In this document: piece after piece, positions 3,699 through 57,883 of the stretch | How positions within the stretch are numbered: position 1 is the stretch's first letter | Layout: each line of letters starts with the position of its first letter | Source of the DNA: Patescibacteria group bacterium | GTDB taxonomy: Bacteria > Patescibacteriota > Patescibacteriia > Patescibacteriales > UBA12465 | Length of the DNA: 64,000 bases | Assembly: GCA_049317985.1 (NCBI GenBank) | Contig: JBMOHF010000003.1 | Location: forward strand, 22,350-86,349 | Reading direction: 5' to 3' | Made by a program: the position numbers and the translations under genes | The notes under the pieces: generated by a model | Told to the model about the DNA's origin: nothing | Database searches by the model: none | The model's input: the letters and a program-made list of their open reading frames with translations, nothing else

Positions 3699-5396
3699 TT
3701 ACATCTTCTCTAAAGTTTCAATCCCTAAAATATTTAAAGATTTTCCTAAAACAATCGTGAAGGCCTCAACCAACTTCAAGCGGAGGTTTGTGTTGCTAGA
3801 ATTAGCGACCGGGCAAGAATGATAAAACTCATTAAAAATTTGCGCTAACTCAAAAGCATAGTGCGCTACTAAAGATGGATTACGATTTTCTCCGGCAAAA
3901 ATAAGTAGTTCCGGAAAGCCAGCAATTTTTTGAATCAGGGCGAACTCGGCATCTTCTAAATTGGCTGTGTCACGAAAATCACCTTCAGTTTCTGATACTT
4001 TTACCAGAATGGAATTGGCACGGGCAAATGAATAGAGAAGATATGGGCCAGTGTCGCCATCGAAACTCAAAGATTCTTTTGGATCAAAAACCATGTCTTT
4101 AAAAACATTAGTCTTGAGTAATTTATATTTAATTGCCGCGAGAGCAATTTTCAGGGCACGAGTGGCGGCTTCGGCTGGATCAATGTCGCTGGTTCTTTCA
4201 ATAATTCCCTCTTTTGCTAAATCAGTTAATTCCCAAATTAAATTATCAGCATCAACAACCGTTCCTTCGCGTGACTTCATCCGCCCTTCGGGTAAAGAAA
4301 TCATCCCGTAAGAAAGATGACTAATTTTTTTGGCAAAACCCATCTTCTTCAAAATAATCGCCAAAACCTTAAAATGATAATCTTGTTCGTTGCCGACGAT
4401 ATAAATTGAATCATCATAGTTATAATCAGCGTCCTTTAAAAAAGCCAGATATAAATCCTGAGTCATATAGACACTGGTACCGTCGGCGCGCAGTAGAACT
4501 TTTTCGTCCAAACCATCGGCGGTCAGGTCAAGAATGATCGCCCCATCTTCACGTTTAGAAAAAACTCCGTCGGACAAATTTTTTAAAACCAAGTCCTTTC
4601 CCTGCTGATAGATTTCGCTTTCAAAATAATTTTTATCATGTTTGATTCCAACAAGCTCAAAAGTTTCCTTAAAACCCTCGAAGGCCCAATTATTCATTTT
4701 CTGCCAAAGGTTTCTGGTTTCCGGATCGCCATTTTCCCATTTCAATAGTAGCTCCTGAGTTTCCTTCTCGAGATTCTCGTCATTTTTGGCGAGGGAGGAA
4801 AATTTTACATAGTAATCACCAACAAAATGATCGGACTTTTTGTCCGGCTCAGCATTCTTGCCTTCTTTTTGATAGGCAATCATCGATTTGCAAATATGAA
4901 TACCGCGATCATTAAAAAGATTAGTGCGAACTACTTTTTCCCCGTTCGCTTCCAAAAGACGGGCTAATGATTCGCCGATTGATAAGTTGCGGAGATGACC
5001 AAGGTGCAAGGGTTTATTGGTGTTTGGCGATGGATATTCAATGACAATTGTTTTGCTGTTCGTTGGTGCATTACCAAATTTTTCACATTTGTCTAAAACA
5101 TCATCCAAAACAGAAATCGCAAAAGACGCACGATCCAGAAAGAGATTGAGGTAAGGACCAACCGCTTCAGCGTTCTGGATAATATTATGACCAGACATTA
5201 AATTCGCAAGCTTTTCGGCAATCACGGCCGGAGGAAGAGCAAGATCTTTGGATAAGACAAAACAAGGGAAAGCAAAATCACCCAAGTCTCTCGTTGGCGG
5301 AACTTCGATTTTTACTAGCAGATCAGAGGCTGAGACCGTCTGACCACTCAATTCTTTCACTTTTTCAGCCAATAACTTGGCGATTTTGCTTTTCAT
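3699..5396 (-). CDS. argS: Arginine--tRNA ligase
   Basis: 565 aa. HIGH-type PLHLGHLRN, KMSKS-type MKSREG, typical C-terminal DALR-like anticodon-binding region. Confidence 0.95.
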   Translation of the reverse strand: MKSKIAKLLAEKVKELSGQTVSASDLLVKIEVPPTRDLGDFAFPCFVLSKDLALPPAVIAEKLANLMSGHNIIQNAEAVGPYLNLFLDRASFAISVLDDVLDKCEKFGNAPTNSKTIVIEYPSPNTNKPLHLGHLRNLSIGESLARLLEANGEKVVRTNLFNDRGIHICKSMIAYQKEGKNAEPDKKSDHFVGDYYVKFSSLAKNDENLEKETQELLLKWENGDPETRNLWQKMNNWAFEGFKETFELVGIKHDKNYFESEIYQQGKDLVLKNLSDGVFSKREDGAIILDLTADGLDEKVLLRADGTSVYMTQDLYLAFLKDADYNYDDSIYIVGNEQDYHFKVLAIILKKMGFAKKISHLSYGMISLPEGRMKSREGTVVDADNLIWELTDLAKEGIIERTSDIDPAEAATRALKIALAAIKYKLLKTNVFKDMVFDPKESLSFDGDTGPYLLYSFARANSILVKVSETEGDFRDTANLEDAEFALIQKIAGFPELLIFAGENRNPSLVAHYAFELAQIFNEFYHSCPVANSSNTNLRLKLVEAFTIVLGKSLNILGIETLEKM

Positions 5397-55576: not shown

Positions 55577-56977
55577 ATGGAACCAGAAAACGGACAATCA
55601 AAAAATCCAAGACTAGGAAAAGCCGCAATTAACTTTTTGTTGAACGCGGTTAAACTTTTGTTATTTTTAAAAAAAACGATTGCACTTTTAATCAATTTAC
55701 TTGCCAAATTTATTGCTTGGATTTTTCGTTTAGTTTTGAAGCGCCCGCTAATTAGAATTTACTATTGGATATTTCGCTTTAAAAAGGAAGGATTGATTGA
55801 AAATTCAATTTTTGATGTTGTTCGTAAAAAAATACCACATTTTTTTATTGCTCTACTAGTTTTTATTAGTTTCTTATCTAACCTTGGACAACCAAATAAA
55901 ATTTCCGCTGTCACTGAAAGTATGTCAAAGACCACCATGGCCCAGTTAGTGTCCGGCGAATTTAGCAATCTTGAACAAGAGAGCATGATCAAAGAGACTC
56001 TTAACCCAGCTAGCATCCACGATTACGCTAATGATAAATATTCTCACGATCAAGGCGTTTTAAACAATGAATTGCCAATAATTGACACTAATACTGATTT
56101 TGAAGATGATCAGTTCGTAATCGAAAAAAATTCTGACTATCTCAGTAAACCAGATATTTGGGGTGTTAATAATAATTCCGGCAGTACAAACGTACCCGCT
56201 GCACAAAAAAGAAATAGTGTAATATATTATACAATTAAAAATGGCGAAACTATTAGCGCAATCGCCAGATCTTTTGGGCTTAATGTAAACACAATCTTGT
56301 GGGCAAATAATCTTGGCCCAAGAAGTTTGATTCAACCAGGAAACCAGTTAATGATCTTGCCTCAGAATGGCGTCGTTTACACGGTTATAAAAGGTGATAC
56401 AATTGGTAAAATTGCGAGAAAATACGGAATTGGTGAAAATATTTTAATTTCCGAAAATAACTTGGGAAATAGCATTGCTATCGGACAAAAAATTCTTATT
56501 CCCGGTGGTCGCATTTTAACAGAAAGCGCTCCAACTACTAACACCACAAAAACCAATAGTTATACGGGAATTTCAGTAATTAAGGATTTAGTAAAAGCCC
56601 CAGCAGCAAAAATAACGGGTGGAAATATGCTTTGGCCAACAGTTGGACATCGCATTACCCAATATTATTCTTGGAGACATACAGGATTGGATATTGCAAA
56701 TAAAGTTGGAACACCTCTTTATGCGGCCGAAAGTGGAACAGTTGAATTCGCAGGTTGGAGTAATGGTTATGGAAACAACGTCGTAATTAACCACGGCGGC
56801 GGCAAGAAGACTCGTTACGCTCACGCCTCAAAACTGTTTGTTTCTGTTGGACAAGAAGTTGACCGTGGCGAAAATATCGCGGCCATGGGATCTACTGGTT
56901 GGTCTACCGGCCCGCACATTCACTTTGAAGTGATGGTTAATGGTGTCAAATATAACCCACTAAACTATATTAAGTAA
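55577..56977 (+). CDS. Membrane-anchored LysM-repeat M23 peptidase
   Basis: Two LysM repeats (YTIKNGETISAIARSFGLNVNTILWANNL; YTVIKGDTIGKIARKYGIGENILISENNL). M23 motifs HTGLDIA and GPHIHFEV. Confidence 0.9.
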   Translation: MEPENGQSKNPRLGKAAINFLLNAVKLLLFLKKTIALLINLLAKFIAWIFRLVLKRPLIRIYYWIFRFKKEGLIENSIFDVVRKKIPHFFIALLVFISFLSNLGQPNKISAVTESMSKTTMAQLVSGEFSNLEQESMIKETLNPASIHDYANDKYSHDQGVLNNELPIIDTNTDFEDDQFVIEKNSDYLSKPDIWGVNNNSGSTNVPAAQKRNSVIYYTIKNGETISAIARSFGLNVNTILWANNLGPRSLIQPGNQLMILPQNGVVYTVIKGDTIGKIARKYGIGENILISENNLGNSIAIGQKILIPGGRILTESAPTTNTTKTNSYTGISVIKDLVKAPAAKITGGNMLWPTVGHRITQYYSWRHTGLDIANKVGTPLYAAESGTVEFAGWSNGYGNNVVINHGGGKKTRYAHASKLFVSVGQEVDRGENIAAMGSTGWSTGPHIHFEVMVNGVKYNPLNYIK

Positions 56978-57319: not shown

Positions 57320-57392
57320 GGGCCCTTAGCTCATCTGGTAGAGCACCTGCTTTGCAAGCAGGGGGTGGCAGGTTCGAGTCCTGTAGGGTCCA
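57320..57392 (+). tRNA. tRNA-Ala (anticodon UGC), no encoded CCA
   Basis: Full cloverleaf folded by hand. Acceptor GGGCCCT/AGGGTCC with G3:U70. D-stem GCTC/GAGC. Anticodon arm CCTGC-TTTGCAA-GCAGG. T-arm GCAGG-TTCGAGT-CCTGT. 73 nt. Confidence 0.93.
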
Positions 57393-57396
57393 CAAG

Positions 57397-57426
57397 AAAA
57401 AAATCTAGCAACAGCTAGATTTTTTT
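57397..57426 (+). terminator. Intrinsic terminator after tRNA-Ala
   Basis: atctagc-aaca-gctagat hairpin followed by tttttt. Confidence 0.75.
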
Positions 57427-57440
57427 CTTGTGCAAAAATC

Positions 57441-57551
57441 ACAGGACGAGAAAGCCGGAGCCGCATTTATGCGGCGAGGCCGGACTAGGGTGCTTGTTTT
57501 TCGCCGAGTGTAACGAAGGTGAAAAACTTAGCAACCGGAACCGAGTCCTGT
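57441..57551 (+). ncRNA. Unclassified GC-rich structured RNA candidate (three-way junction)
   Basis: Closing helix acaggac/gtcctgt (57441..57447 with 57545..57551). Arm 1: ccgg..gccgca-ttta-tgcggc..ccgg (57455..57483). Arm 2: 9-bp tttttcgcc/ggtgaaaaa extended by gcttg/cttagc (57491..57533). Sits in an otherwise AT-rich spacer. Confidence 0.5.
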
Positions 57552-57615
57552 ATTTATTAAATATTTATTAGCTGATTGCTTAAACTTTATCGACGTCATG
57601 AAATAATAACCCTAT

Positions 57616-57683
57616 GGGCCAGGTATGGCTACGAACCAGAATTTAACAATCAGGTCTTCGGAGTTCGATTCTCCGCTGGTCCA
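57616..57683 (+). ncRNA. 68-nt tRNA-like element (non-canonical; not assignable to an amino acid)
   Basis: Acceptor GGGCCAG/CTGGTCC with G3:U70 and discriminator A. Perfect T-arm CGGAG-TTCGATT-CTCCG. The D region (TGG-CTACGAA-CCA) and central hairpin CCAGA-ATTTAACAA-TCAGG (A-A mismatch, 9-nt loop) do not fit a cloverleaf. Confidence 0.5.
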
Positions 57684-57773
57684 CTTGGTTGAATTTTTTC
57701 AATCAACATGATATTATTAAATAGTTAAATTCTGGTACAATATACGTATCCATGCGAGACAATCACATATTTC

Positions 57774-57805
57774 AAAAACCTCCCTTTTCGGGAGGTTTTT
57801 GTTTT
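57774..57805 (+). terminator. Intrinsic terminator
   Basis: cctccc-ttttc-gggagg hairpin followed by tttttgtttt. Confidence 0.8.
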
Positions 57806-57883
57806 ATTCAAGTTTATAACTTATAATAGCAATACACTAACAGCGCCGTTTGGCGCCTATTCAAAAAATCTAATCATCTTTTT

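Follow-up and report, generated by a model that had tools for sequence, protein, structure and literature searches.

The 64,000-nt stretch of a Patescibacteria group bacterium considered here (contig JBMOHF010000003.1 of GenBank assembly GCA_049317985.1, positions 22,350 to 86,349; hereafter the window, in whose own numbering positions are given) contains, past an open reading frame (ORF) for a small membrane protein, a 640-nt intergenic region in which a tRNA-Ala(UGC) gene is followed by a hairpin and then by a 112-nt GC-rich three-way junction that we name E (Table 1). E belongs to an uncatalogued, multi-copy, tRNA-linked family that is absent from Rfam. Its members are structured, have ends matched to the local tRNA, occur in arrays, and are present or absent among relatives.

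E begins 47 nt past tRNA-Ala on the same strand and is closed by the pairing of ACAGGAC with GTCCTGT. Its GC content (0.55 in 57450-57549) exceeds that of the DNA just downstream (0.32-0.37), and its minimum free energy is -50.5 kcal/mol (z = -5.2), a stability matched by none of 200 dinucleotide shuffles. The minimum-free-energy fold includes the closing helix, the hairpin GCCGCA-TTTA-TGCGGC and a second hairpin, TTTTTCGCC/GGTGAAAAA. These features and their positions behind tRNA-Ala had been proposed in a first-pass annotation made from the sequence alone, and are borne out by ARAGORN, Rfam, a repeat search and folding. One pairing suggested there did not survive: in place of CCGG with CCGG in the first arm, covariation among relatives backs a 3-bp GCC/GGC helix (57454-56 with 57478-80) and a GGA/GA internal loop. 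With the closing helix designated P1 and the two arms P2 and P3, the window P1 has G.A/A.G pairs where the related loci L001, L003 and L005 (loci and contigs are denoted by L-numbers) have U-A/C-G, and P3 runs from a 4-bp helix next to the junction, through a 2x2 internal loop and GGUGCU paired with AGCA-A-CC, to a distal hairpin, GUUUUUCGCC/GGUGAAAAAC. A covariance model of the family, R1, finds E as its sole match across the window.

The tRNA-Ala gene does not encode CCA. An 11-nt direct repeat, CGAGTCCTGTA, joins the tRNA to E with 100% identity between 57375-57385 and 57542-57552. Within about 700 nt a repeat of this length has a chance expectation on the order of 0.05 by our estimate and is not significant alone; we hold it to be real because in relatives the repeat extends to 19-21 nt and takes in the whole tRNA 3' end. 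The perfect hairpin between tRNA and E was not called in a scan for consensus terminators, because its stem is GC-poor; equivalent hairpins separate tRNA from E in most copies.

Table 1. Features of the locus, in window positions; copies of the second core E' (see text) are numbered within their own loci
Feature	Position	Strand	Remarks
tRNA-Ala(UGC)	57320..57393	+	anchor or target of the module; ARAGORN; Rfam RF00005 at 65 bits
First 11-nt repeat copy	57375..57385	+	T-loop from C56, T-stem 3' strand, first acceptor base
Perfect 19-bp hairpin with A-run and T-run	57391..57432	.	terminator-like, bidirectional type; between tRNA and E; repeat search
Element E, T-arm-capped three-way junction	57441..57552	+	model R1, 117.9 bits; fold z = -5.2; family covariation
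P1 5' strand, ACAGGAC + GAG	57441..57450	+	complementary to tRNA positions 56-65; alignments
Junction J1/2, GAAA	57450..57453	+	sole spelling there in all copies printed (alignment, consensus line)
P2 arm: GCC/GGC, GGA/GA internal loop, variable hairpin GCCGCA-TTTA-TGCGGC	57454..57480	+	helices 2, 3
P3 arm	57483..57542	+	helices 4-6; alignment
Second repeat copy	57542..57552	+	P1 3' strand and truncated tail; the acceptor 3' strand of relatives is missing here
Downstream flank TTTATTAAATATTTAT	57553..57568	+	common with the flank of the second, older E of L001; alignment, BLAST
E' copy, L155	6255-6469	-	
E' copy, L272	5761-5957		
E' copy, L193	6745-6853	-	
E' copy, L302	7392-7547	-	
E' copy, L259	~4269-4500		

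The E family and its tRNA-matched ends

Model R1 was built from five copies, the window E included, and was applied to loci drawn from one degenerate-pattern scan each of genome and metagenome collections. It identified 43 copies in the genome loci and, with the metagenome loci added, 102 matches (85 distinct) scoring 32-127 bits; the window E, itself one of the five seeds, scores 117.9 bits over R1 positions 1-112, with P1, P2 and P3 in order. Among 32 titled genome records with a match, 21 are named as Patescibacteria (Falkowbacteria, Parcubacteria, "Patescibacteria group"). The other 11, one of them the contig of L001 itself, are titled Gammaproteobacteria, Planctomycetota, Acholeplasmataceae or plain "bacterium", or are unlabelled; we take these labels to reflect mislabelled bins. 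Two or three E copies at separate places were seen in several of the genomes or contigs.

Covariation among homologous loci is strong. Between 84 and 86% of pair cells are paired, compared with 32-39% when the 3' partners are slid; for the 85 distinct sequences the values are 84% and 32-36%, with double changes in 24 of 38 pairs. Changes on both sides of a pair number 214 in alignment A4 (62 in shuffles) and 320 in A5 (107 in shuffles), counts reached by none of 500 shuffles. All seven pairs of helix 3, the variable hairpin of P2, show compensatory changes. The consensus reads, in order, P1; the GAAA junction; P2, with GCC/GGC, the GGA/GA loop and the variable hairpin; a two-base link; and P3, with GGUC/GACC or GGCU/AGCC, a 2x2 loop, GGYGCU/AGCR-A-CC and a distal hairpin of two subtypes. 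The scan pattern for genomes demanded the blocks GAAAGCC (within which the junction GAAA falls), GGGYGCTT and AGCRACCG, and that for metagenomes demanded GAAAGCCGG and GAGGCCGGGYYRGGGYGCTT; the near-invariance of the conserved blocks is therefore partly a retrieval effect. These constraints do not touch the covariation seen in the variable hairpins and in P1. In alignment A5 many copies share a conserved A.C mismatch in helix 3 (P2a; for example GCGAUG...CACCGC), within an otherwise Watson-Crick hairpin. Most likely E folds into its three-way junction as RNA on the tRNA strand, which is favoured because the conserved unpaired bases are purine-rich (GAAA, GGA/GA and a bulged A), terminators lie past the tail, and one class of copies, type 2 below, is tRNA-like.

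Searches of Rfam 15 gave, for the window E region, no match at gathering thresholds and, with permissive filters, no credible match at E-values of 10 or less; tRNA alone was matched, and no known family overlaps E. Neither a type 2 copy nor the core of E', described below, matched an Rfam model. RNase P, ykkC, transfer-messenger RNA (tmRNA), Y RNA, Acido-Lenti-1 and known ribozymes were rejected for E on the same ground. The first-pass annotation had regarded a resemblance to RNase P CR-I and to ykkC (the guanidine-I riboswitch) as superficial, and we concur: cmscan returned neither at E-values of 10 or less, size and helix order are unfit, and only the short strings GAGAAAGCCGG and ACUAGGGU are held in common, the ykkC-like ACUAGGGU not being conserved in the family, most copies of which read GUCGGGGC. 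A full-text search of the literature yielded no description of an E-like element; the nearest match, group I introns in anticodon loops of Patescibacteria tRNAs, is unrelated.

Wherever an upstream tRNA was detected, it precedes E by 21-85 nt and the two share a strand. Partner tRNAs are Ala(UGC, GGC), Ser(GCU, GGA, CGA, UGA), Leu(CAA, UAG, UAA), Pro(UGG, CGG, GGG), Gln(CUG, UUG), Cys, Arg(CCU), Val(UAC) and Lys(CUU), at least nine specificities in all. Decayed tails excepted, each copy repeats its local tRNA from C56 to the end, beginning with the last C of its own GACC, over 19-25 nt and sometimes 60-73 nt; in most copies a terminator follows this tail. At the other end E opens with 10 nt that are reverse-complementary to tRNA positions 56-65 (for example GAGGGAATCG with CGATTCCCTC), and the left junction is constant at T55/C56. 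The closing helix is thus the local T-stem, continued for 4-5 bp into the T-loop; it changes with the tRNA, and the P1 pairs covary with tRNA type. The initial description of the window element as a T-arm with a structured insert of about 95 nt in its loop is true of every copy, each with a closing helix that tracks its own tRNA.

Repeats, arrays and locus architectures

Syntenic loci were retrieved through a neighbouring M23 peptidase (55577-56977). This protein is 100% identical to one listed by NCBI from a Patescibacteria-group metagenome-assembled genome, and among its closest relatives is one, 79% identical, from a metagenome-assembled genome assigned by NCBI to Candidatus Falkowbacteria. 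E stands behind the same tRNA-Ala in L001, L003 and L005 (peptidase identities of 78-80%), and the hairpin arms vary among these locus copies through compensatory changes. Past E in L001 and L003, 19-20 nt repeat the tRNA from T-loop base C56 through the discriminator; in L001, L003 and L182 the repeat reaches 19-21 nt, through the tRNA 3' end. L006 (74% identity of the neighbouring protein) has the same tRNA-Ala and synteny without E, its downstream DNA being too diverged for exact junctions, and DNA past the tRNA/E region differs even among close relatives. Contigs of several relatives (L002, L007, L008, L009, L010 and L011), among them some of the 23 contigs carrying protein P0013, end inside the tRNA-Ala gene; a second identical tRNA-Ala elsewhere, or population heterogeneity at the site, could account for such ends.

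L001 carries two tandem copies of E, of different subtypes, in the order tRNA-Ta-E1-tail-Tb-E2-tail, where Ta and Tb are different trailer-plus-terminator sequences. The tail of the tRNA-proximal copy is a perfect 20-nt repeat; that of the distal copy has decayed to CGAGTTCTATA and is followed by TTTATTAAATATTT, the same flank as that past the window E, and by BLAST window positions 57530-57806 align to L001 6144-6451. In L005 the order is tRNA-Tb-E. The L001 array fits the insertion of a new unit beside the tRNA, ahead of an older one. The flank shared between the window copy and the older copy of L001 suggests, on sequence comparison, that two members of an array recombined.

The window E departs from the family in ways that mark it as probably an old, immobilised copy, a view that we take because its tail is cut to 11 nt (compared with 19-21 nt, through the tRNA 3' end, in L001, L003 and L182), its flank is that of an older member, and two P3 pairs are broken. 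Two G-to-A changes, giving A57484.C57541 and C57485.A57540 in the alignment, disrupt the junction-proximal helix of P3, which reads GGCU/AGCC or GGUC/GACC in other copies; the two pairs are intact in 42 of 43 copies. L182, whose core is the closest to that of the window E (0.89 identity), still has a repeat of 21 nt. Truncated tails of 8-14 nt occur also in L005 (10 nt), L145 (11 nt), L215, L164, L301 and L286.

Over 52 distinct units the length of the repeat shared by tRNA and tail is bimodal. It is exactly 19 nt in 16 units and 19-22 nt in 22; in this class the match stops no more than a few bases from the last tRNA base, similarity being lost in the next 10 nt or so, a boundary that we read as the meeting of two DNAs of separate origin, as in attL and attR (left and right attachment sites). 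Simple tandem duplication was rejected, since the 19-nt repeats of these 16 units stop at or just beyond the tRNA end with dissimilar trailers, and also since E1 and E2 of L001 are of different subtypes. In about 10 units the duplication takes in everything between C56 and the start of P1, an interval of 51-73 nt. At L276, L243, L305, L268, L246 and L158 the duplicated interval measures 64-86 nt and, together with the partial second E behind it (see below), exceeds one unit length and ends variably. Cores often have their nearest relative at another type of tRNA in another genome (Ala/Leu 0.84, Ser/Ala 0.88, Gln/Pro 0.85).

For some copies of E there is no tRNA in the nearest 400 nt, or anywhere in the 8-kb locus, and its place is taken by a decayed remnant of a tRNA 3' end, such as TTCGAATAGCGTCCCGTACTCTCCGC. 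Remnants about 60-110 nt upstream of E were noted at L254, L304, L237, L178, L170, L239, L265, L263 and L155; they start at T54, reading TTCGAAT...CTCTCCGC or ...CCCCGAGC, and some are preceded by a conserved TTAGCCAC(A)CC end motif. Accessory genes, including one for a HerA-like ATPase, precede the remnants, and a restriction-modification-like set lies downstream of another tRNA-less copy; Pfam searches of the accessory ORFs by tRNA-less copies matched the HerA-like ATPase only, with no integrase. We read the remnants as the attR of larger islands, lacking E, that would have integrated later in the same T-loops, which would make T-loops integration hot spots in E-bearing genomes.

Two architectures can be distinguished. 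Type 1, to which the window copy belongs, consists of the tRNA, a terminator hairpin, a spacer of about 15-25 nt and E; an acceptor 5' strand was not found in the window copy or in most other type 1 copies. Type 2 adds, after the tRNA terminator, an acceptor 5' strand and a covarying hairpin, P0. The strand forms 7 of 7 pairs at an offset of 31-33 nt in L144, L157, L155, L232, L247 and L253 (five distinct sequences) and 6 of 7 pairs at 31-34 nt in five further loci. As predicted from these pairings, type 2 as a whole is a cloverleaf-like RNA made up of an acceptor stem, P0, and a T-arm capped by E. A loop motif, (C)ACCUGCG(U)G, is common to many of the hairpins that follow the tRNA (L006, L145, L129, L178, L120, L184, L149, L190 and others) and recurs in type 2 P0 hairpins and at the L006 tRNA that lacks E.

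The same architecture is shared by an unrelated core of about 150 nt, E' (CUGGUUGGAAGCGAGACG...CCAACCCUGG...), whose 5' strand is complementary to the local T-arm and whose tail repeats the tRNA 3' end. E' adjoins tRNA-Gly(UCC, GCC), Asp and Ala and a Gln-type tail, sometimes in one array with E.

The window holds a second tRNA-like element, at 57616-57685, accompanied by stretches at 57689-57717, 57721-57736 and 57773-57801, that is called neither by ARAGORN nor by the Rfam tRNA model. Its acceptor stem, GGGCCAG/CTGGTCC, contains G3:U70, a feature of tRNA-Ala. There is also a 3-bp D-like hairpin, another arm bears the 9-nt loop ATTTAACAA, and the T-arm, CGGAG-TTCGATT-CTCCG, is normal. A central stretch of 13-16 nt is complementary to 57721-57736, a pairing that carries three compensatory changes in L001. 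A promoter-like TTGAAT-17-TATTAT stands between the tRNA-like element and its complementary stretch, and a strong terminator follows.

Downstream of several units lie candidate defence or toxin-antitoxin genes (L185, 374-4268; L196 and L005, downstream; L232, 1926-2486): a putative DNA methylase with a restriction enzyme and an OLD-like ATPase, nucleotidyltransferase/HEPN-type pairs, and a RelB/YafQ-like pair. These names are our reading of the sequences, apart from a weak Pfam match to NTP_transf_2/Polbeta in L005.

Mobile module, host RNA and other readings

With moderate confidence, we interpret E as the cargo of a module that encodes no protein and that integrated, in the manner of an attachment (att) site, at the tRNA T-loop, the cargo being a structured RNA closed by the att core itself. 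Such a module would carry, in order, a duplicate of the tRNA segment between C56 and the final base, a trailer and terminator hairpin of its own, a short spacer, and E. Insertion would leave the host tRNA intact, with its displaced original 3' end following E, the layout expected when site-specific integration of the att type uses the T-loop sublocation; the closing helix, in which the 5' end of E pairs with the copy of tRNA positions 56-65, would then be formed with the att core. A recombinase supplied in trans and acting at the T-loop would move the modules, which once placed would expand, contract and swap parts by homologous recombination between repeats, and the fold of E would be recognised by the mobilising machinery or by tRNA-processing enzymes. 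The function and enzymology of E are inferred. The three origins offered in the first-pass annotation, namely a tRNA-derived structured RNA, a relic att-type duplication and a novel non-coding RNA, each hold in part, given the identity block from C56 to the tRNA end, the covariation, and the lack of an Rfam match.

Several observations weigh against integration as described. Clustering of the ORFs lying up to 5-6 kb from the units, first for 43 units and later for 118, revealed no enriched integrase, transposase or other protein family and recovered only the upstream housekeeping synteny. A pattern scan of viral contigs for E gave chance matches only, and BLAST against annotated phages and plasmids gave none; the mobilising enzyme is therefore hypothetical. 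Neither a free or excised form of E nor an empty/filled pair at strain-level identity was observed. Beyond the second repeat, the long-repeat units carry a partial second E, made up of its first 5-52 nt, before the sequence turns to unrelated DNA; such a fragment is not expected from simple integration and points to unequal crossing-over, concatemer-like intermediates or later deletions. Retargeting by classical site-specific recombination would yield chimeric tRNAs, and at least nine tRNA types have been reached. No promoter-like site was seen between tRNA and E in the window. Finally, the strand-bias counts (66 G-U against 82 A-C, the conserved P2 A.C included) are ambiguous as to the folding strand, because the A.C of P2a would be a G.U on the opposite strand.

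Alternatively, E would not be mobile but a family of tRNA-like non-coding RNAs with a cellular function in the host. By mimicking the T-stem and acceptor, such RNAs would offer a handle to the tRNA-maturation enzymes (RNase P, RNase Z, the CCA-adding enzyme) or possibly for aminoacylation, new genes arising by duplication of the 3' part of a tRNA gene. The missing link to a mobility gene, the retention of several copies in each of a number of reduced genomes, the terminator beyond most tails, and a junction spelled alike in nearly all copies (though the search patterns demanded three blocks) agree with such a role, as does type 2, with its acceptor stem of 7-9 bp at a constant offset, its covarying P0 and its cloverleaf-like outline. 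Most copies, however, are type 1 like that of the window and have no acceptor 5' strand; many have lost the acceptor tail and retained the core; and the window itself holds a decayed copy. Presence of E varies among close relatives, arrays combine differing subtypes, and the identity block stops at the tRNA end between unrelated trailers, which implies two origins rather than duplication and divergence. We consider a host RNA unlikely, if worth serious attention. We are equally doubtful of a bolder proposal, that E and E' together form a new class of protein-less mobile RNA or DNA modules whose fold, as RNA or single-stranded DNA, directs a trans-acting recombinase or nickase to a chosen tRNA T-loop; here the core would be closed by a programmable helix that copies the T-arm of the target tRNA and sometimes its acceptor stem, and type 2 copies would be RNAs tagged with a tRNA minihelix and matured by tRNA enzymes. 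Selection of tRNA genes guided in this manner by a structure or an RNA would be without a described precedent.

The fold might instead belong to single-stranded DNA, as in the attC sites of integrons or the attP hairpin of CTX phage, with the closing helix rebuilding a duplex T-arm half-site for a host recombinase or HUH nickase. The constant T55/C56 junction, the inverted (positions 54-65) and direct (positions 56-76) copies of the target flanking E, the balance of G-U and A-C counts between strands, the lack of an encoded protein, and the variable-ended duplications of more than unit length, which resemble rolling-circle or concatemer products, all sit well with this proposal. We nonetheless think it quite improbable, as the conserved purine-rich junction, loops and bulge (GAAA, GGA/GA, bulged A) and the type 2 cloverleaf look RNA-like, whereas attC-like DNA conserves structure alone, and no IntI-, Xer- or HUH-type gene was found nearby. 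Still less credible to us, and very unlikely, is the idea that E acts as scaffold and guide in one for an RNA-guided nuclease or recombinase (like the omega RNA of TnpB/IscB, the homing CRISPR RNA of Cas12k, or the bridge RNA of IS110), in which the tRNA-matched 3' tail would be the guide and GGTT, taken as invariant in the tRNA T-arm, the adjacent motif. A stretch of 19-25 nt with full identity to the adjacent tRNA gene does come after a conserved scaffold of about 100 nt, the match is preceded by GGTT in the tRNA and by GACC or AGCC in E, and the tail is retargeted among nine tRNA types; but the ORFs up to 6 kb from 118 units include no gene for an effector of the TnpB, IscB, Cas12k or IS110 type, P1 ties up the initial 10 nt of what would be the guide, the match often runs into the trailer and terminator (up to 73 nt), as expected of DNA duplication and not of a spacer, and the Rfam models of known guide scaffolds did not match.

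We give least credence, and very little, to E as a cis-regulatory riboswitch or leader, or as a GC-rich fold lying by chance next to a relic att scar. The three-way junction with its conserved joining bases, the strings ACUAGGG and GAGAAAG flagged in the first-pass annotation, and the near-chance level of the 11-nt repeat taken alone would suit one or other of these. For regulation in cis, however, there is no conserved downstream gene, content there differing even among close relatives; a terminator follows most copies; and no Rfam riboswitch matched at E-values of 10 or less. Chance is excluded by about 100 copies with covariation. An intron in a tRNA T-loop was rejected on the completeness of the upstream tRNA and the lack of an acceptor strand in the window tail, and a primer-binding-site origin from mature tRNA on the continuation of the repeat into the trailer of the gene rather than into CCA.

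Relation to known systems and implications

Integrative elements associated with tRNA genes, and tRNA-like RNAs, are kinds already known; what is unusual in E is the programmable T-arm cap, the absence of an encoded protein, and the sharing of one architecture by two cores. The 2002 catalogue of tyrosine-integrase att architecture by Williams reportedly includes the T-loop among the sublocations of tRNA genes. Like integrative elements of that kind, E has a direct repeat that starts inside the T-loop and stops at, or a little past, the tRNA 3' end, leaves the tRNA intact, is present or absent among relatives, and is arrayed with the newest units by the tRNA and older ones, with decayed repeats, outward. 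Unlike them, the insert is of about 150-220 bp, encodes no integrase or other protein, and amounts approximately to a terminator plus a covarying structure whose closing helix uses the att core.

The Acido-Lenti-1 RNA motif (Rfam RF01687) and similar motifs have been reported beside tRNAs and integrases at the ends of putative mobile elements. E resembles Acido-Lenti-1 as a conserved structured motif by tRNA genes with a 3' end overlapping tRNA-derived sequence, and differs from it in phyla and fold, in having no integrase near, in the way its closing helix and tail follow the identity of each tRNA, and in matching no Rfam model. Like tmRNA, bacterial Y RNA (YrlA) and mascRNA, type 2 copies stack an acceptor stem on a T-stem with the remainder of the tRNA replaced; in E, however, a three-way junction stands in for the T-loop itself, the tRNAs mirrored by the acceptor and T-stem are many rather than one, most copies have no acceptor 5' strand, and neither the tmRNA nor the Y RNA models of Rfam match. 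With attC and the attP of CTX phage, E shares inverted core repeats flanking about 60-140 nt, arrays of units and the lack of a recombinase in each unit, but its junction is near-uniform and RNA-like, its target is a tRNA T-loop, and no IntI or Xer gene is linked.

Patescibacteria genomes are very small, and nonetheless keep several copies of E, each fitted to a different tRNA. If mobile, E modules would be, to our knowledge, the smallest tRNA-targeting integrative units, and would imply an enzyme supplied in trans that recognises tRNA T-loops; they would be relevant to the evolution of Patescibacteria genomes and possibly of use as a tool for site-specific integration. If E copies are host RNAs, they would represent a new class of tRNA-like RNA with a swappable tRNA handle. 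Either way, E and E' account for recurrent GC-rich "orphan" intergenic folds by tRNAs in these genomes, and may add to contig breaks and annotation gaps at tRNA loci.

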